NCBI RefSeq assembly: GCF_024502345.1
Contig: NZ_JALDNN010000001.1
DNA: 64,000 nucleotides
Direction: 5' to 3' (one strand)
Source of the DNA: Escherichia coli
GTDB taxonomy: Bacteria; Pseudomonadota; Gammaproteobacteria; Enterobacterales; Enterobacteriaceae
The translations under genes and the position numbers were made by a program. Each line of letters starts with the position of its first letter. Within the stretch, counting starts at the first letter, position 1. Shown one piece after another: positions 3,227 to 30,754 of the stretch. The notes beneath the pieces are model-generated. The model had not been told where the DNA came from and did no database searches. It was given only the letters and a program-made list of their open reading frames with translations.

Positions 3227-4000
3227 CTAGGGAAGAATGATTTCAATTTGGCTGTCTTGTAAGCGTGATTTTAGCGCAGCGGGCGGCAGCTCGTCGGTGA
3301 AGAGCGCGGTGACCTGTGCCACGTTACCAATTTCAACCGCCGCCGAAGCATGATACTTAGTGTGATCGGCGACCAGCAGGATATTTCTCGCGTGCGCCAT
3401 CATCGTTTTCACCACGTTAGCTTCGTTTACATCAAACTCCATCAACGCGCCATCGCTCTCGATTGCGCCTACGCTTGTTACCAGATAATCAGCACGAAAA
3501 TCGGCCACAAAGGACGCCGCTGAAGGGCCAATGATCCCGCTATTATGAGAGCGCAACGTACCGCCGGGCACCATCACTTCAAAGCGCGGGTTGTGGTAAA
3601 GAATATGCGCCACACGCAGGCTGTTGGTGATTATCCGCAAATGATTATGGTTAAGTAACGCCCGGGCGACATGCTCAACGGTCGTACCAATGGTGATAAA
3701 TATTGTTGAACCATCAGGAATATAGTCTGCCACCGCTTCGGCAATCGCTTTTTTTTCCTCGGTTTGCGAAACCTCACGCTGCTCGAACGCCGTATTAACG
3801 ACGCTGGAAGCCCGACCCGCGCCACCGTGATGGCGCGTAATCAGGCCTTGCTCGCTTAATTTACGAATATCCCGGCGCACCGTCTGCGTGGAGACATCCA
3901 GCAGATTTGCCAGCTCATCAATATTCATATACCCACGCTCGGCGATCAGCATGAGGAGTTGGTCGTGCCGCGGGTTACCGGTTAGTTCGGTAAGGCTCAT
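3227..4000 (-). CDS. yihW: DeoR-family transcriptional regulator of the sulfoquinovose cluster (CsqR/YihW)
   Basis: N-terminal HTH (MNIDELANLLDVSTQTVRRDIRKL) plus DeoR C-terminal sugar-binding domain; start chosen at ATG 3998-4000 (MSLTEL...) with GAGGAA 6 nt upstream; the track's longer start is a GTG. Confidence 0.85.
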   Translation of the reverse strand: MSLTELTGNPRHDQLLMLIAERGYMNIDELANLLDVSTQTVRRDIRKLSEQGLITRHHGGAGRASSVVNTAFEQREVSQTEEKKAIAEAVADYIPDGSTIFITIGTTVEHVARALLNHNHLRIITNSLRVAHILYHNPRFEVMVPGGTLRSHNSGIIGPSAASFVADFRADYLVTSVGAIESDGALMEFDVNEANVVKTMMAHARNILLVADHTKYHASAAVEIGNVAQVTALFTDELPPAALKSRLQDSQIEIILP

Positions 4001-4033
4001 GAAAATTCCTCGAAAAACCATCACCCTGGCATT

Positions 4034-4930
4034 TTATACAAAAAGTGACAAAAAAGATCGGGTTTGATCACAGTCAGGGATCCCGGCTCGTCCACCGGGA
4101 CGCGTGCATTTCAACGCCGCTACACCGCTGGCGAAGCGGACTGACTCCGCTAAATCCCCACCTGTTGCCAGCGCCACCGCCAATGCGCCGTGAAAAACAT
4201 CACCCGCACCTGTGGTATCTACCACATCAACTTTGAAGGCCGGTTGATGTTGACGCCCGCCATTTTCCAGCCAGTCACAGCCTGCGCTGCCCTGGGTCAC
4301 ATAGACATGACCATTTGTGAGCGTTTGTGCCTGTTTTAGCGCACTGGCCATCTCTTTCACACCCGTTAAGCGCGCCAGACCCGGTTCTGAAAAGGCCGCA
4401 TGATCGCTTAATGCCACCAGCTCGCTGATATCCTGCGGCGTAATATCACCGTCCAGAACGGTCATCACGCCCGCCTGCCGGGCCAGAGTGAAGGCTTTTT
4501 TAGCGCCGTCGTGCCAGCGTACATCTGCCAGCACAACATCCCACTGAGAGAAATCAATTTCCTCCAACCACTCTGCGTCAGGCAGCAGGTCCGGGCTGGG
4601 GTAGTTAATGATTATCCGCTCGCCTGTGGCATCCACCATGATGGCGGATTGCGATGATTTCGCCTGGTTATACCGTTTGGTGTAACGGGTGTTAACGCCC
4701 CAGGATTCCAGCTCTGCCAGCAGGCTGTTGCCCGTGTCGTCATCACCTACGCGACCCATAAAATCAACCTGCGCCCCCAGCCTTGCCGCCGCAACCGCTG
4801 CCGTCGCCGCTGGCCCGCCACCAACTTCCGTATAATTTCTCGCCACGTATTTACCGCTCTCCGTCGGTAACCCTTCCACGTAATAGATGCGATCCATCAC
4901 GGTTATACCTACACAAGCAACACGAATCAT
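4034..4930 (-). CDS. yihV: PfkB-family sugar kinase (6-deoxy-6-sulfofructose kinase YihV)
   Basis: PfkB ribokinase-like ORF with GAGD motif (DTTGAGDVFHGA); start set at the third Met (MIRVACVG...), 298 aa, with AAGGA upstream. Confidence 0.9.
   Translation of the reverse strand: MIRVACVGITVMDRIYYVEGLPTESGKYVARNYTEVGGGPAATAAVAAARLGAQVDFMGRVGDDDTGNSLLAELESWGVNTRYTKRYNQAKSSQSAIMVDATGERIIINYPSPDLLPDAEWLEEIDFSQWDVVLADVRWHDGAKKAFTLARQAGVMTVLDGDITPQDISELVALSDHAAFSEPGLARLTGVKEMASALKQAQTLTNGHVYVTQGSAGCDWLENGGRQHQPAFKVDVVDTTGAGDVFHGALAVALATGGDLAESVRFASGVAALKCTRPGGRAGIPDCDQTRSFLSLFV
4038..4050. promoter_or_regulatory. Copy 1 of exact 13-bp motif ACAAAAAGTGACA, upstream of yihW inside the 3' end of yihV; candidate regulator-binding element
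   Basis: Exact repeat of the 13-mer at 5063-5075; a chance exact 13-mer match in 64 kb is unlikely (about 1e-3). Confidence 0.4.
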
Positions 4931-4981
4931 GGTCATTCCTTAAACATTTTGGGATGCGTTCATTTTAATTTCACCAATTGT

Positions 4982-5075
4982 TTAAAAAGTGACGGCTGTC
5001 AATTTTTTGACTATAAATTACAAATACGATCAAAAACAGACAATCAAAGCGTGTCATAAATGACAAAAAGTGACA
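4982..5075. promoter_or_regulatory. yihV/yihU divergent control region with repeated AAAAAGTGAC motifs and the palindrome TGTCATAAATGACA
   Basis: AAAAAGTGAC at 4984-4993 and 5065-5074; palindrome TGTCATAAATGACA at 5052-5065; 13-mer ACAAAAAGTGACA at 5063-5075; TTGACT at 5007-5012. Lies between the divergent yihV and yihU starts. Confidence 0.45.
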
Positions 5076-5097
5076 TCGCTGTATTCAGGAGAAGGTT

Positions 5098-5994
5098 ATG
5101 GCAGCAATCGCGTTTATCGGTTTAGGACAAATGGGTTCGCCAATGGCGAGCAATTTATTGCAGCAAGGGCACCAACTTCGCGTCTTTGATGTGAATGCCG
5201 AGGCTGTGCGGCATCTGGTAGACAAAGGCGCGACTCCCGCCGCCAACCCGGCGCAGGCCGCTAAAGATGCCGAATTTATCATTACCATGTTGCCGAATGG
5301 CGATCTGGTGCGCAGCGTGTTGTTCGGTGAGAACGGCGTTTGCGAAAGCTTATCTACCGATGCGCTGGTCATTGATATGTCGACCATCCATCCGCTGCAA
5401 ACCGATAAATTGATTGCCGATATGCAAGCCAAAGGCTTCAGCATGATGGATGTTCCGGTAGGCCGTACTTCTGCAAATGCCATTACCGGTACTCTGTTAC
5501 TGCTGGCTGGCGGCACCGCTGAACAAGTTGAACGTGCCACGCCGATCCTGATGGCGATGGGCAGTGAGTTGATCAACGCTGGCGGTCCGGGCATGGGGAT
5601 CCGCGTTAAGCTCATCAACAACTATATGAGCATCGCACTCAATGCGCTTTCGGCAGAAGCTGCCGTTTTGTGCGAAGCCCTGAATCTTCCCTTCGATGTT
5701 GCCGTCAAAGTGATGAGCGGTACCGCCGCCGGTAAAGGCCACTTCACCACTTCCTGGCCAAACAAAGTCCTCAGCGGAGATCTTTCTCCCGCCTTCATGA
5801 TCGATCTTGCCCATAAGGATCTTGGCATCGCCCTTGATGTCGCCAACCAGCTGCATGTGCCAATGCCGCTGGGGGCCGCCTCACGGGAGGTTTATAGCCA
5901 GGCGCGCGCAGCGGGTCGCGGTCGCCAGGACTGGTCCGCCATTCTGGAACAGGTCCGTGTCAGTGCCGGGATGACTGCCAAAGTAAAAATGTAA
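5098..5994 (+). CDS. yihU: 3-sulfolactaldehyde reductase (3-hydroxyisobutyrate dehydrogenase family)
   Basis: 298-aa ORF with N-terminal Rossmann motif [10 protein letters not shown]; AGGAGAAGG SD upstream; matches YihU. Confidence 0.95.
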
Positions 5995-8153: not shown

Positions 8154-8333
8154 CTGACTAAAAAAAAACGACATATCAGGCTGCACGCCGGGTATGTCGT
8201 TATTCAATAAAGGTACCTCGTATGCAAATCACCAACATGCATTGCAGTGGACAGACCGTTTCACTTGCCGCGGGGGATTATCACGCGACCATTGTGACCG
8301 TCGGTGCAGGTCTGGCTGAATTAACCTTTCAGG

Positions 8334-9554
8334 TGTAGATTCAATTGGTCAACGCAACAGTTATGTGAAAACATGGGGTTGCGGAGGTTTTTTGAATGAG
8401 ACGAACATTTACAGCAGAGGAAAAAGCCTCTGTTTTTGAACTATGGAAGAACGGAACAGGCTTCAGTGAAATAGCGAATATCCTGGGTTCAAAACCCGGA
8501 ACGATCTTCACTATGTTAAGGGATACTGGCGGCATAAAACCCCATGAGCGTAAGCGGGCTGTAGCTCACCTGACACTGTCTGAGCGCGAGGAGATACGAG
8601 CTGGTTTGTCAGCCAAAATGAGCATTCGTGCGATAGCTACTGCGCTGAATCGCAGTCCTTCGACGATCTCACGTGAAGTTCAGCGTAATCGGGGCAGACG
8701 CTATTACAAAGCTGTTGATGCTAATAACCGAGCCAACAGAATGGCGAAAAGGCCAAAACCGTGCTTACTGGATCAAAATTTACCATTGCGAAAGCTTGTT
8801 CTGGAAAAGCTGGAGATGAAATGGTCTCCAGAGCAAATATCAGGATGGTTAAGGCGAACAAAACCACGTCAAAAAACGCTGCGAATATCACCTGAGACAA
8901 TTTATAAAACGCTGTACTTTCGTAGCCGTGAAGCGCTACACCACCTGAATATACAGCATCTGCGACGGTCGCATAGCCTTCGCCATGGCAGGCGTCATAC
9001 CCGCAAAGGCGAAAGAGGTACGATTAACATAGTGAACGGAACACCAATTCACGAACGTTCCCGAAATATCGATAACAGACGCTCTCTGGGGCATTGGGAG
9101 GGCGATTTAGTCTCAGGTACAAAAAACTCTCATATAGCCACACTTGTAGACCGAAAATCACGTTATACGATCATCCTTAGACTCAGGGGCAAAGATTCTG
9201 TCTCAGTAAATCAGGCTCTTACCGACAAATTCCTGAGTTTACCGTCAGAACTCAGAAAATCACTGACATGGGACAGAGGAATGGAACTGGCCAGACATCT
9301 AGAATTTACTGTCAGCACCGGCGTTAAAGTTTACTTCTGCGATCCTCAGAGTCCTTGGCAGCGGGGAACAAATGAGAACACAAATGGGCTAATTCGGCAG
9401 TACTTTCCTAAAAAGACATGTCTTGCCCAATATACTCAACATGAACTAGATCTGGTTGCTGCTCAGCTAAACAACAGACCGAGAAAGACACTGAAGTTCA
9501 AAACACCGAAAGAGATAATTGAAAGGGGTGTTGCATTGACAGATTGAATCTACA
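8334..9554 (+). mobile_element. Insertion sequence IS30, complete 1221-bp copy, flanked by 2-bp target-site duplication GG
   Basis: Left end TGTAGATTCAATTGGTCAACGCAACAGTTATGTG..., right end ...TTGACAGATTGAATCTACA (terminal inverted repeats); length 1221 bp; GG at 8332-8333 and 9555-9556; encodes a 383-aa transposase. Confidence 0.95.
8396..9547 (+). CDS. insI: IS30 transposase (DDE family)
   Basis: 383-aa ORF MRRTFTAEEKASVFELWKNGTGF... with N-terminal HTH and C-terminal DDE domain; recognised as the IS30 transposase. Confidence 0.95.
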   Translation: MRRTFTAEEKASVFELWKNGTGFSEIANILGSKPGTIFTMLRDTGGIKPHERKRAVAHLTLSEREEIRAGLSAKMSIRAIATALNRSPSTISREVQRNRGRRYYKAVDANNRANRMAKRPKPCLLDQNLPLRKLVLEKLEMKWSPEQISGWLRRTKPRQKTLRISPETIYKTLYFRSREALHHLNIQHLRRSHSLRHGRRHTRKGERGTINIVNGTPIHERSRNIDNRRSLGHWEGDLVSGTKNSHIATLVDRKSRYTIILRLRGKDSVSVNQALTDKFLSLPSELRKSLTWDRGMELARHLEFTVSTGVKVYFCDPQSPWQRGTNENTNGLIRQYFPKKTCLAQYTQHELDLVAAQLNNRPRKTLKFKTPKEIIERGVALTD

Positions 9555-10407
9555 GGGCTGTCATTTAGTTATTCCACATAAACCCGAAGAGATGCCGCTG
9601 GCACATCTGGGCAAAGTCCTTATTCCGTGGCCGAACCGGATCGCCAACGGCTGTTATCGCTATCAGGGGCAGGAATATCAGTTACCCATTAATGAACATG
9701 GTTCAAAAGCCGCTATTCATGGGCTGCTCGCCTGGCGTGACTGGCAAATCAGCGAATTAACCGCCACCAGCGTTACCCTGACAGCTTTTCTGCCACCCAG
9801 TTACGGCTATCCGTTTATGCTGGCTTCGCAGGTTGTTTATTCGCTCAATGCACGCACGGGTCTTTCCGTTGAGATCGCAAGTCAGAATATTGGTACTGTG
9901 ACCGCACCCTATGGTGTGGGTATTCATCCTTATTTAACCTGCAACTTAACATCTGTTGATGAATATCTGTTCCAGCTTCCGGCAAACCAGGTTTATGCCG
10001 TCGATGAGCACGCTAATCCGACAACGCTTCACCACGTTGATGAGCTGGATTTAAATTTCACGCAGGCGAAAAAAATAGCCGCGACAAAAATCGACCACAC
10101 CTTTAAAACCGCTAATGATCTGTGGGAAATAACCATTACCCATCCACAACAGGCGCTTTCGGTAAGCCTTTGTTCCGATCAACCCTGGGTGCAGATTTAT
10201 AGCGGCGAAAAATTACAGCGTCAGGGACTGGCAGTTGAACCTATGAGTTGCCCACCTAACGCCTTTAATTCAGGTCTCGACTTATTATTACTGGAACCAG
10301 GGAAAACGCACCGCCTGTTTTTTAATATTTACGGGCAGCACAATTAATTTTATTAAGAAAAGAACGAGATCATTGTTTAGGGTTGTATTTACACAACAGG
10401 AAATATC

Positions 10408-11283
10408 ATGGACTTTTTTACGTTATTTTCACCGGATGGGGTCATGCTGGAAACAAACGTGGTATGTATCGTTATCGCGTTAATGTTTCTTTATACCTTT
10501 GTGGGGATATGCGCGGGATTTGGCGGTGGTTTAACCACCATGCCGCTCGTCACGTTAATGCTCCCCGTAAAAATGGCAACTCCGCTCTCGGTGATTGTCG
10601 GCACCGCGACCGCCTTGTACGCCACCTGGCTGTCACGTAAAGAAACGGATTGGCGATCGGCAATGGTACTGATTATTTTCTCGTTTCTGGGAATACCCGT
10701 CGGTTTATATGCGCTGTCATATTTACCCGACCATTTTATGAAAGTGGGCTTAGGCGGATTCCTTATCCTGTACTCCTTTTACAGTATGTTTATTCCACGC
10801 CTGCCGATTTATGACCGCAACTGGATCGCCGCACCTATCGGCGCTGTGGCAGGAGCGTTAGGGGCAGCGTTTTCAACCAACGGACCGCCGATGGTTATCT
10901 ACGGTATGCTGCGTAACTTAGGCCCGGCGGCATTTCGTGGCACTCTGAACGCTTTCTTCACCGCAAACAACATCGCGGTGATCGGCGGGCTGGCGACCAG
11001 CGGAATTTTGACTGTTTCTATCTTTAAACTGGTGCTGTTTTGTATTCCCACCATGATCCTCGGTTCACTGGTTGGACAATATGTGCATAAACGCATTTCA
11101 GTCAAAGTGTTCCGTGTGATGGTCTTTTTGTTGCTGATTGCCTCCGGTTCTATGTTGATAAAAGGCGCGCTGGGAATTCCCGCTGCTGCCGCGCTTCTGC
11201 CTCCTTTTACCTTGTTAGTTATACTGCAACTGGCATTTGGTAAAAAAGTGGCGGCAATCCGCCGGGCTGAAGAAAGTAAATAA
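10408..11283 (+). CDS. TauE/SafE (TSUP, DUF81) family anion permease; putative sulfite or organosulfonate exporter
   Basis: 291-aa polytopic membrane protein with the family hallmark glycine motif (GICAGFGGGLTTMPL) and a second repeat (GAVAGALGAAFSTNGPP); AGGAAA SD 6 nt before the ATG; host-like GC and codon usage. Sits between yihR and yihQ. Confidence 0.8.
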   Translation: MDFFTLFSPDGVMLETNVVCIVIALMFLYTFVGICAGFGGGLTTMPLVTLMLPVKMATPLSVIVGTATALYATWLSRKETDWRSAMVLIIFSFLGIPVGLYALSYLPDHFMKVGLGGFLILYSFYSMFIPRLPIYDRNWIAAPIGAVAGALGAAFSTNGPPMVIYGMLRNLGPAAFRGTLNAFFTANNIAVIGGLATSGILTVSIFKLVLFCIPTMILGSLVGQYVHKRISVKVFRVMVFLLLIASGSMLIKGALGIPAAAALLPPFTLLVILQLAFGKKVAAIRRAEESK

Positions 11284-11391: not shown

Positions 11392-13424
11392 ATGGATACG
11401 CCACGCCCACAATTACCAGATTTTCAGTTTCATCAGAATAACGACAGTTTTACCCTACATTTTCAACAGCGTCTTATTTTAACCCATAGCAAAGATAATC
11501 CTTGTTTATGGATTGGTTCAGGTATTGCGGATATCGATATGTTCCGCGGCAATTTCAGCATTAAAGATAAACTACAGGAGAAAATTGCGCTTACCGACGC
11601 CATCGTCAGCCAGTCGCCGGATGGTTGGTTAATCCATTTCAGCCGTGGTTCTGACATTAGCGCCACGCTGAATATCTCTGCCGACGATCAGGGCCGTTTA
11701 TTGCTGGAACTACAAAACGACAACCTTAACCACAACCGTATCTGGCTGCGCCTTGCCGCTCAACCAGAGGACCATATCTACGGCTGCGGCGAACAGTTTT
11801 CCTACTTCGATCTGCGTGGCAAACCGTTCCCGCTATGGACCAGTGAACAAGGCGTTGGTCGCAATAAACAAACCTATGTCACCTGGCAGGCCGACTGCAA
11901 AGAAAATGCGGGCGGCGACTATTACTGGACTTTCTTCCCACAGCCTACGTTTGTCAGCACGCAGAAGTATTACTGCCATGTTGATAACAGTTGCTATATG
12001 AACTTCGACTTTAGTGCCCCGGAATACCATGAACTGGCGCTGTGGGAAGACAAAGCAACGCTGCGTTTTGAATGTGCTGACACATACATCTCCCTGCTGG
12101 AAAAATTAACCGCCCTGCTGGGACGCCAGCCAGAACTGCCCGACTGGATTTATGACGGAGTAACGCTCGGCATTCAGGGCGGGACGGAAGTGTGCCAGAA
12201 GAAACTGGACACCATGCGTAACGCGGGCGTGAAGGTCAACGGCATCTGGGCGCAGGACTGGTCCGGTATTCGTATGACCTCTTTTGGCAAACGCGTGATG
12301 TGGAACTGGAAGTGGAACAGCGAAAACTACCCGCAACTGGATTCGCGTATCAAGCAGTGGAACAAAGAGGGCGTGCAGTTCCTTGCCTATATCAACCCGT
12401 ATGTTGCCAGTGATAAAGATCTCTGCGAAGAGGCGGCAAAGCGCGGTTATCTGGCAAAAGATGTCGCCGGTGGCGACTATCTGGTGGAGTTTGGCGAGTT
12501 CTACGGCGGCGTTGTCGATCTCACCAATCCGGAAGCCTACGCCTGGTTCAAGGAAGTTATCAAAAAGAACATGATTGAACTCGGCTGCGGCGGCTGGATG
12601 GCTGACTTCGGCGAGTATCTGCCCACCGACACGTACCTGCATAACGGCATCAGCGCGGAAATTATGCATAACGCCTGGCCCGCGCTGTGGGCGAAATGTA
12701 ACTACGAAGCCTTGAAGAAACGGGCAAGCTCGGCGAGATCCTCTTCTTTATGCGCGCCGGTTCTACCGGTAGCCAGAAATACTCCACCATGATGTGGGCG
12801 GGTGACCAGAACGTGGACTGGAGTCTGGACGATGGCCTGGCGTCGGTTGTCCCGGCGGCGCTATCTCTGGCAATGACCGGACATGGCCTGCATCACAGCG
12901 ACATTGGCGGTTATACCACCCTGTTTGAGATGAAGCGCAGCAAAGAGCTGCTGCGCTGGTGCGATTTCAGCGCCTTCACGCCGATGATGCGCACCCACGA
13001 AGGTAACCGTCCTGGCGACAACTGGCAGTTTGACGGCGACGCGGAAACCATCGCCCATTTCGCCCGTATGACCACCGTCTTCACCACCCTGAAACCTTAC
13101 CTGAAAGAGGCCGTCGCGCTGAATGCGAAGTCCGGCCTGCCGGTTATGCGCCCGCTGTTCCTGCATTACGAAGACGACGCGCAGACCTATTCCCTGAAAT
13201 ATCAGTACCTGTTAGGTCGCGACATTCTGATTGCTCCGGTACACGAAGAAGGTCGCAGCGACTGGACGCTCTATCTGCCAGAGGATAACTGGGTCCACGC
13301 CTGGACCGGAGAAACCTTCCACGGTGGAGAAATAACTGTTGAAGCGCCCATCGGCAAGCCGCCGGTCTTTTATCGCGCCGACAGCGAATGGGCTGCACTG
13401 TTCGCCTCGTTAAAAAACATCTAA
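11392..13424 (+). pseudogene. yihQ: Sulfoquinovosidase (GH31) gene with a -1 frameshift
   Basis: Two overlapping ORFs (11392-12792 and 12750-13424) in different frames both match YihQ. Frame 1 reads ...CNYEAL through 12712-12714; frame 2 reads EETGKLGEILFFMRAGS from 12714. Continuity needs GCC TTG GAA GAA where the sequence has GCC TTG AAG AAA, i.e. one G missing at 12714/12715. Confidence 0.8.
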
Positions 13425-30607: not shown

Positions 30608-30754
30608 GCGACTAACTTTACTCTTTTTTGTTCAGTTCAGAAAGCACTTTTTGTAATTTTTTTTCAGTTGTTGCATAGGAATTTCTAATAGCCATCACAA
30701 AACGTGACAGCTTATGTTGCTTACTTACGAAAAAAGGGCATGTTCAGGCGAATC

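Follow-up and report, generated by a model that had tools for sequence, protein, structure and literature searches.

The window analysed here, a stretch of 64 kb (64,000 nucleotides) from Escherichia coli, carries three genes of the yih cluster around two control regions. The csqR gene (yihW), at 3227-4000 on the minus strand, codes for a DeoR-family repressor; yihV, at 4034-4930 on the minus strand with its stop codon at 4034-4036, codes for sulfofructose kinase; and yihU, at 5098-5994 on the plus strand, codes for sulfolactaldehyde reductase and is the first gene of the rightward operon. The regulator gene beside the sites is named csqR in RefSeq, and its product has 257 residues in this strain because of Q258*. 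It contains the HTH_DeoR (E = 4e-23) and DeoRC (E = 2e-49) domains, in agreement with the first-pass annotation, which had taken YihW for a DeoR-family regulator. Few organosulfur compounds are as abundant as sulfoquinovose, and the yih cluster is the model system for its degradation by gut bacteria.

The CsqR/yih system has been described in E. coli K-12 (Shimada 2019; Gao et al. 2021, PMC8464067), with the same genes and the same bound regions as in the window. Genomic SELEX and gel shifts of Shimada 2019, as relayed by later papers (PMC8006165, PMC8249747, PMC12608037), showed that purified CsqR binds the yihU/yihV spacer and its own upstream region. The same work (Shimada et al. 2019, Microbiology 165:78) is reported to show that CsqR represses yihUTS, yihV and csqR, and that sulfoquinovose relieves this repression. 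Published work also describes large cooperative high-molecular-weight complexes of CsqR on the yihU/yihV probe, seen by gel shift and atomic force microscopy, and in a 2025 study CsqR is described as binding more weakly upstream of csqR. Both autoregulation and the control of the two divergent units, which the first-pass annotation had put forward as predictions, are conclusions already in print. Since CsqR binding to both regions is already published, the present analysis is a base-level refinement and not a discovery: the regulation by CsqR is known, and the base-level operator model is possibly new. The K-12 literature resolves the binding to fragments or to 41 bp, and the papers on fragment-level or 41-bp ChIP-exo binding, Shimada 2019 aside, state no CsqR consensus box; the TGACA-N5-TGACA model is proposed from this analysis.

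The 13-mer ACAAAAAGTGACA was found in two exact copies on the plus strand, at 4038-4050 and 5063-5075, and in no further exact copy in the 64-kb window. On the csqR side, the copy falls within the last yihV codons (L-S-L-F-V), 38-50 nt upstream of the csqR ATG (4000, minus strand), and the 3' end of the yihU-side copy lies 23 nt before the yihU ATG (5098). Both copies, together with their positions in the 3' end of yihV upstream of the yihW start and 23 nt upstream of yihU, had been noticed at first pass and are confirmed. The K-12 sequence is the same as that of the window across both 13-mers. Among 80 orthologous loci, the exact 13-mer was present at the equivalent place in 39 on the csqR side and in just 3 on the yihU side, and the exact duplication was limited to Escherichia.

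The first-pass annotation had estimated the chance recurrence of the 13-mer at about 1e-3, a figure that fits one given 13-mer only. Across the 64-kb window we counted 64 maximal pairs of exact direct repeats 13 nt or longer, and with up to two mismatches the 13-mer had 4 matches in the window compared to 2.0 expected, a count reached in 12 of 100 shuffles. The rarity of the 13-mer in the window as a whole was rejected on these grounds. The coincidence is significant only because the copies are located in the two control regions: for an exact word of at least 13 nt common to 4001-4100 and 4931-5097, 20,000 dinucleotide-preserving shuffles gave a P of about 0.001 with either strand allowed. The repeated 13-mer is real and probably functional, and it is most likely part of CsqR-bound DNA sites.

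A motif search over the orthologous clusters, proposed at first pass, placed both copies on conserved islands, but what is conserved across about 75 orthologous clusters of Enterobacterales differs from the 13-mer: two TGACA pentamers at a spacing of 10 bp, with A-rich DNA of variable sequence between them (TGACA-N5-TGACA). In the yihU leader of the window this unit corresponds to the box pair TGACA-AAAAG-TGACA at 5061-5075 on the plus strand, which includes the second 13-mer. Of 74 distinct yihU leaders, 63 contain a TGACA-like pair at a distance of exactly 10 nt and at most 60 nt from the yihU ATG; like the other orthologue counts, this one overstates the independent support as the sequences are related by descent. 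Shuffles yielded 0.65 on average and never more than 4, and no other spacing was found in more than 6 of the 74 leaders. In the alignment of 74 distinct orthologous yihU/yihV spacers, the box columns were conserved in 58-69 sequences, with a variable spacer between the boxes and unconserved flanks. The counts of the 13-mer and of the box pair covered the window and 596 kb of DNA from orthologous loci: TGACA-N5-TGACA has a single occurrence in the 64-kb window, and 44 of its 48 occurrences in the 596 kb fall within these control regions. The pair is kept in Yersinia, Hafnia and Budviciaceae, though shifted relative to the ribosome-binding site and to the spacer core described below. In many species the second box directly adjoins the Shine-Dalgarno GGAG, and a consensus promoter scan was empty there; the boxes were rejected as -35 hexamers on this basis.

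Upstream of csqR, the box pair ATACA-N5-TGACA was found at 4036-4050 on the plus strand, with its first box (W1) at 4036-4040 and its second (W2) at 4046-4050. Of 78 aligned sequences, 71-78 keep the ATACA columns and 67-78 the TGACA columns, and 64 of 76 distinct csqR upstream regions of the orthologues contain TGACA; among the orthologous loci, those of Yersinia, Serratia and Hafnia lack the csqR-upstream pair. A position matrix built solely from non-Escherichia yihU-proximal sites ranked this site third among about 128,000 window positions, and the promoter region of spf, also within the window, gave chance matches of similar score. A site downstream of yihS (8157-8175, matrix score 14.75) was not counted, its boxes being 14 nt apart and part of a hairpin.

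The csqR transcription start was mapped by primer extension at -27/-28 from the ATG (PMC5816610), that is, at 4027/4028 of the window. From the sequence we assigned the csqR -10 hexamer to TATAAA at 4033-4038 on the minus strand, a block almost invariant in the orthologues. The ATACA-N5-TGACA pair overlaps this hexamer and the promoter spacer, from about -9 to -23 of the mapped start. The third-codon-position identity of yihV is 0.80 in the last 15 codons compared to 0.36-0.44 upstream, so that a non-coding constraint overlies these codons, which double as csqR promoter and proposed operator. The overlap with codons and with the -10 hexamer could explain part of the conservation of the csqR-side copy.

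In the yihU/yihV spacer, the in vivo CsqR site determined by ChIP-exo corresponds to 5011-5051 (signal/noise 168; PMC8464067 supplementary file 5), after transfer of the coordinates to the window by a conversion checked against NC_000913.3. The site ends 12 nt short of the yihU-side 13-mer, and the same file lists no peak upstream of csqR, including 4038-4050. The earlier claim that the copies are the CsqR operator holds at the level of regions, both copies being in CsqR-bound DNA; at base level the ChIP-exo site excludes 5063-5075. The spacer core, at about 5008-5043, is invariant from Escherichia to Serratia. Within this core and the ChIP-exo site lies a degenerate copy, CAAAAACAGACAA, at 5031-5043 on the plus strand, which matches CAAAAAGTGACAA at 11 of 13 positions and is invariant in the orthologues. 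Weaker boxes of the core, TTACA at 5018, GATCA at 5028 and AGACA at 5038, are in 10-bp register. The self-similarity of 5004-5080 peaks at a lag of 10 (z = 2.8, uncorrected p = 0.006), a significance lost after correction for 25 lags. Among the weaker ChIP-exo peaks, ssuE has TAACA-N4-TAACA and glpA has nothing comparable, neither of them showing a clear box pair.

Between the core and the second 13-mer, TGTCAT-AA-ATGACA (TGTCATAAATGACA) at 5052-5065 had been called a perfect palindrome. It is an inverted repeat with 6-nt arms and a non-symmetric AA centre, and so not strictly perfect. Its left arm is Escherichia-specific, with the base of the window present at columns 5052-5056 in fewer than half of the 74 sequences, and its right arm (5061-5065) is conserved. 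As a palindromic operator TGTCATAAATGACA was rejected because the left arm is unconserved in the orthologues.

The third near-copy reported at first pass, AAAAAGTGAC at 4984-4993 on the plus strand, is present, but half of a CRP site for yihV is the better reading of it. It falls within the CRP-like site AGTGA-CGGCTG-TCAAT at 4988-5003 on the plus strand (centre 4995.5), of which it supplies the left half. In class II CRP promoters TGTGA-N6-TCACA is found near -41.5; here the yihV start lies at -25/-27 from its ATG at 4930 (PMC5816610), or about 4955-4957, which places the site at about -40, at a distance similar to that from the yihU start at -62/-63. At least 85% of the orthologues keep the bases of the two halves (4988-4992 and 4998-5001), and positions 4994-4996 are variable. 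A second such site, TTTGA-TCACAG-TCAGG at 4063-4078 on the plus strand, has conserved columns and serves the class II csqR promoter, its placement agreeing within 1-2 nt with the conserved csqR CRP site published at -41.5 (PMC5816610).

These sites bear on a broader reading, in which all motif copies are CRP half-sites, AAAgTGA resembling the left half of AAATGTGA, and belong to catabolite control rather than to CsqR. The third copy fits it well, as does the published CRP binding to both regions, which for the yihU/yihV spacer was seen in gel shifts (PMC5816610). We nevertheless judge it very unlikely: the exact 13-mers have no usable CRP right half, AGATC (4057-4061) and TGTAT (5082-5086) each matching TCACA at 1 of 5 positions, a CRP site on the csqR copy would be centred at about -24 and one on the yihU copy downstream of the starts of yihU, the CRP site published for csqR is further upstream, and the conserved pattern is a direct repeat and not an inverted one. 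CRP was accepted as the account of the third copy alone. Another kind of reader, a winged-helix response regulator such as PhoB, OmpR or ArcA, is suggested by the reverse complement of the boxes, TGTCAC-TTTT-TGTCAT, which resembles a Pho box. The Pho box has the consensus CTGTCATA(A/T)A(T/A)CTGTCA(C/T), and OmpR and ArcA sites are phased direct repeats as well, here too of a TGTCA-like pentamer. Their readers, however, are not DeoR-type sugar repressors and their operators have no known link to the yih cluster. In 63 of 74 lineages the boxes repeat at 10 nt, not at the 11 nt of Pho and ArcA boxes, the motif is confined to the control regions of the cluster in 596 kb of orthologous DNA and recurs upstream of the cluster's own regulator gene, and the adjoining DNA is very strongly occupied by CsqR in vivo, all of which makes a response regulator the least probable reader considered here.

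The most serious alternative, though in our view an unlikely one, is that the invariant core, taken here as about 5008-5051, is the primary and sufficient CsqR operator, and that the 13-mers are uncontacted in vivo, being incidental or at most weak auxiliary sites. The extent of the ChIP-exo site, which leaves out 5063-5075, the missing csqR peak in the published list, the invariance of the core from Escherichia to Serratia and the weaker csqR binding described in the 2025 study all favour it. It leaves unexplained, however, why 63 of 74 yihU leaders keep two pentamers exactly 10 nt apart with a variable spacer between them, and why the spacer of the csqR promoter is conserved, and it sits poorly with the binding of purified CsqR to the csqR upstream fragment, as relayed from Shimada 2019. 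An absence of any operator function, with the identity arising by chance in A-rich promoter DNA and the conservation owed to promoter elements, to the ribosome-binding region and to the coding sequence of yihV, is less probable even than the CRP reading. It would agree with the 64 exact repeats of the window, with the restriction of the exact duplicate to Escherichia and with the overlap of the csqR copy with codons and -10 hexamer. Against it stand the P of about 0.001 for the sharing of a word between both control regions, the conserved TGACA islands at a fixed 10 nt within an otherwise variable leader, and the position of the second box against GGAG in some species, where no room is left for a -35 element.

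We consider it probable that TGACA followed by an A-rich spacer, repeated every 10 bp, is the recognition element of CsqR (YihW). Each exact 13-mer would then represent one and a half repeat units, the unit being roughly TGACAAAAAG. From their conservation and from their positions relative to the published starts and bound regions, we infer that the TGACA boxes are contacts of CsqR. At csqR, the ATACA-N5-TGACA pair covers the -10 hexamer and the spacer of a CRP-dependent class II promoter, so that bound CsqR would exclude RNA polymerase, with autorepression as the predicted result. At yihU, the TGACA-N5-TGACA pair stands between the mapped starts and the ribosome-binding site and might form a roadblock downstream of the starts or serve as an auxiliary site, in cooperation with the invariant core. 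The core, whose weaker boxes share the 10-bp register, is occupied in vivo. Binding of CsqR would spread cooperatively along these phased boxes, all on the same helix face, adjoining or overlapping the shared CRP site, and CsqR would be released by sulfoquinovose, its glycerol glycoside or sulforhamnose. The complete picture is more tentative, and we regard it as quite possible, if somewhat doubtful as a whole, that CsqR reads a phased single-orientation array of TGACA boxes, one per helical turn, and polymerises over about 70 bp between the divergent CRP-dependent promoters, with a separate two-box copy for autorepression in the last yihV codons.

A comparable arrangement is known for FruR, a DeoR-family regulator of the Bacillota, which binds arrays of the 10-bp repeat TGAWWGWTTT across its promoter (PMC11906611). 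The two regulators belong to one family and, on the model proposed here, would share tandem 10-bp units that span the promoter and start with TGA, cooperative binding and a sugar-phosphate-type effector, but they differ in the sequence of the unit, the effector itself and the phylum. The FruR units are contiguous and footprinted, whereas those proposed for CsqR are deduced from conservation and are interrupted by an unconserved gap at 5044-5060.

The locus illustrates well how regulatory DNA can be superimposed on the 3' end of a coding gene, and the gain over the published regulation is incremental. If true, the model would be the first at base level for a CsqR operator, and would add an enterobacterial equivalent to the tandem-repeat operators known from FruR-type regulators of the DeoR family. 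A defined TGACA-N5-TGACA box would explain the cooperative high-molecular-weight CsqR complexes, would permit clean operator mutants and sulfoquinovose biosensors, and would allow the CsqR regulon to be predicted across other Enterobacterales.

The strain of the window is an E. coli, not K-12, with an identity to MG1655 of 97.7% over 3900-5200 and to other E. coli strains of up to 99.8%, and the window is oriented opposite to the MG1655 map. The genes csqR (yihW, 3227-4000) and yihV (4034-4930) are located on the minus strand and yihU (5098-5994), followed by yihT and yihS, on the plus strand. The HTH_DeoR and DeoRC domains are present in CsqR, in which codon 258 is changed from CAG to TAG (3227-3232), giving a protein of 257 aa without the final four residues, QEDA, of K-12 and strain 510016. 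Two further genes of the cassette are interrupted. The sulfoquinovose mutarotase gene yihR (8222-10344) is split into residues 1-37 (8222-8332) and 28-300 (9526-10344) by an IS30-like element with a terminal repeat TGTAGATTCAATTGGTCAACGCAACA at 8335-8360 and a 383-aa transposase ORF at 8396-9547. The sulfoquinovosidase gene yihQ (11392-13424) is read in two frames, residues 1-443 in frame 1 and 439-678 in frame 3, with two gap openings relative to strain 510016. Together with the csqR change, these lesions suggest either a decay of the cassette in this strain or sequencing errors. Between yihR and yihQ, a TauE/SafE-family sulfite exporter gene (10408-11283) is found, annotated also in strain 510016; to our knowledge, it is not a member of the K-12 cassette.

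The exact 13-mer ACAAAAAGTGACA was found at 4038-4050, within the coding sequence of the YihV C-terminus (…S-L-F-V-stop) and 38-50 nt upstream of the ATG of csqR, and at 5063-5075, ending 23 nt before the yihU ATG, with no further exact copy in the 64-kb window. The first-pass annotation had located both copies, as well as the near-copy AAAAAGTGAC at 4984-4993, correctly. Its chance estimate of about 1e-3 fits a pre-specified word only. Over the whole window, 64 maximal pairs of exact direct repeats reach a length of 13 nt or more, and sites with up to two mismatches to the 13-mer numbered 4 for 2.0 expected. The question to ask is whether the two control regions, the yihV/yihU spacer of 167 nt and the stretch of 100 nt in front of csqR, have such a word in common: in 20,000 dinucleotide-preserving shuffles, this happened with a frequency of 0.001. 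The coincidence is therefore significant because of its location and not of window-wide rarity.

One scan with CsqR provided 80 orthologous loci from about 75 Enterobacterales species, ranging from Escherichia to Yersinia, Serratia, Pantoea, Rahnella and Budviciaceae, nearly all with the yihU<>yihV-csqR arrangement. Among the compared loci, an 885-bp contig labelled Bacillus coahuilensis, with a CsqR fragment 100% identical to that of E. coli, is almost certainly a contamination of that assembly. The motif is conserved at both control regions of the orthologous clusters, but the conserved unit is TGACA-N5-TGACA; only E. coli and E. whittamii carry the exact 13-mer at both positions, and its identity is a lineage-specific accident over a degenerate shared motif. 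In the yihV/yihU spacer, about 80 bp (4961-5043) are nearly invariant; conservation is then lost for about 18 nt and resumes with the pentamers TGACA 5061-5065 and TGACA 5071-5075, with a variable A-rich spacer between them and unconserved sequence after. Of the 74 distinct spacers, 63 have two TGACA-like pentamers at a distance of exactly 10 nt, at most 60 nt from the yihU ATG (shuffle control: mean 0.65, maximum 4; all other spacings, at most 6). This pair moves relative to the core (about 5008-5043) and to the ribosome-binding site among lineages, yet it is kept. The second box cannot be a -35 element, since in several genera it lies directly against GGAG. The palindrome noticed earlier across the 5063 copy was likewise rejected as operator, its left arm (5052-5056) being unconserved among orthologues.

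On the csqR side, the upstream block ATTTTATACAAAAAGTGACAnAAAAGAnCGGGTTTGATCACAGTCAGG hardly varies, in contrast to the divergent csqR leader beside it. The block shares positions with the final 15 codons of yihV (4037-4081), whose third-position identity is 0.80 among about 78 orthologues, compared to 0.36-0.44 for the four preceding 15-codon bins, which points to a non-coding constraint on top of the coding one. Promoter, CRP site and putative operator of csqR all lie over these codons. The five columns of the TGACA at 4046-4050 each retain their base in 67-78 of the 78 sequences. TGACA-N5-TGACA itself occurs once in the window, and in 596 kb of orthologous loci it was counted 48 times, of which 44 fall in these control regions. 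A matrix built from the non-Escherichia yihU-proximal sites alone, scored over about 128,000 window positions, ranked the csqR-upstream site 3rd and two core positions 6th and 12th. Two other high-scoring matches, of 16.75 and 14.66 and including ACAAAACGTGACA, fall at 30650-30711, in the interval from yihA to polA and upstream of spf, the gene for Spot 42, and are probably due to chance or CRP-related. At 8155-8210, an A-run right after the yihS stop precedes a hairpin, AACGACATA…TATGTCGTT, possibly a terminator or attenuator before yihR; the match there (14.75) has its boxes 14 nt apart. The divergent clusters L074 and L076-L080, whose CsqR is about 71-74% identical to that of the window and resembles the 'short cassette' regulator of PMC12608037, keep the core ATAAATTACAAATATGCTCAAAAACAGAC and the csqR-upstream AAAGTGACAAAAATGA, with TGTCA-N5-AGACA next to yihU in place of TGACA-N5-TGACA.

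The literature (PMC8006165, PMC8249747, PMC12608037) describes CsqR as a DeoR-family repressor of yihUTS, yihV and csqR. Its binding to the yihU/yihV spacer and to the csqR upstream region is reported from genomic SELEX and from gel shifts, and atomic force microscopy showed it in large cooperative complexes on the spacer probe. Sulfoquinovose, sulfoquinovosyl glycerol and sulforhamnose release it. By ChIP-exo, one strong site was reported, 4071641-4071681, with a signal/noise of 168 (PMC8464067). We read these positions in the older MG1655 numbering, since only then do the glpA and ssuE sites of the same table fit their promoters; the yihV start of PMC5816610 agrees with this numbering as well. 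The site then converts to 5011-5051, within the invariant core; it includes an 11-of-13 copy, CAAAAACAGACAA, at 5031-5043 and ends 12 nt before the exact 13-mer. The same table has no CsqR peak upstream of csqR. The earlier proposal of autoregulation and divergent control through the motif was right in outline and already published, but the strongest in vivo site adjoins the motif and is not on it. A stated CsqR box was not found in the literature searched, the primary paper, Shimada 2019, being outside that search.

Sequence, conservation, positions and, from the literature, binding at the level of the two regions are established. We infer that the functional unit of the proposed operator is TGACA-N5-TGACA rather than the 13-mer, with the boxes as CsqR contacts. 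The winged helix would read TGACA pentamers one helical turn apart in a single orientation, in a unit of about TGACAAAAAG. At csqR, with a published start at 4027/4028 (PMC5816610), a -10 hexamer TATAAA at 4033-4038 and a CRP site in place of the -35 element, ATACA-N5-TGACA (4036-4050) overlies the hexamer and about -19 to -23, so that bound CsqR should exclude RNA polymerase. The 5061-5075 pair, downstream of the yihU -62/-63 and -82/-92 starts and over the minor -15, -25 and -35 starts, might serve as a roadblock or an auxiliary anchor. Weaker boxes in the same register are present in the core (TGACT 5008, TTACA 5018, GATCA 5028 and AGACA 5038), which is separated from the proximal pair by 20-23 nt, about two helical turns, across species, and CsqR could polymerise along them. 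The self-similarity of 5004-5080 is highest at lag 10 (z = 2.8, uncorrected p = 0.006), a periodicity that is suggestive only. A precedent for such an architecture is FruR, also of the DeoR family, bound across its promoter to eight 10-bp repeats TGAWWGWTTT (PMC11906611).

An alternative, with the operator confined to the core and the exact 13-mers unoccupied, is unlikely but deserves the most weight among the rivals. That the motif copies are CRP half-sites holds for the third copy only, as both exact copies are without a right half, and as a general explanation it is improbable. The third near-copy, taken in the first pass for a CsqR motif, is better read as the left half of AGTGA-CGGCTG-TCAAT (4988-5003, centre 4995.5). 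Its two halves do not vary, in contrast to spacer positions 4994-4996, which differ between species, a pattern characteristic of CRP sites. The centre is about 40 nt upstream of the yihV start, published at -25/-27 from the ATG (PMC5816610) and so at about 4955-4957, and about equally far from the yihU -62/-63 start. CRP binding to the yihU/yihV spacer is reported, with a class II site at -41.5 of the csqR promoter (PMC5816610), which we placed at 4063-4078. T4997 and G4998 are conserved too, forming an inverted TGACA, so that CsqR and CRP sites may overlap there. A motif without function seems slightly less probable still than CRP half-sites throughout. Least probable of all is another direct-repeat reader, such as PhoB, OmpR or ArcA, as the period is 10 and not 11 and the motif is cluster-specific.

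A weak CsqR ChIP-exo peak at the MG1655 ssuE promoter (sulfonate-sulfur utilisation; 348-378 of that locus, L086) covers TTAACATTGATAACA, where two TAACA pentamers stand at a distance of 9 nt; if true, a connection of sulfoquinovose with sulfonate regulation would be of interest, but the evidence is thin. CsqR regulation of both regions of the yih cluster was already known, and the base-level refinement of its operator is modest and may be new.
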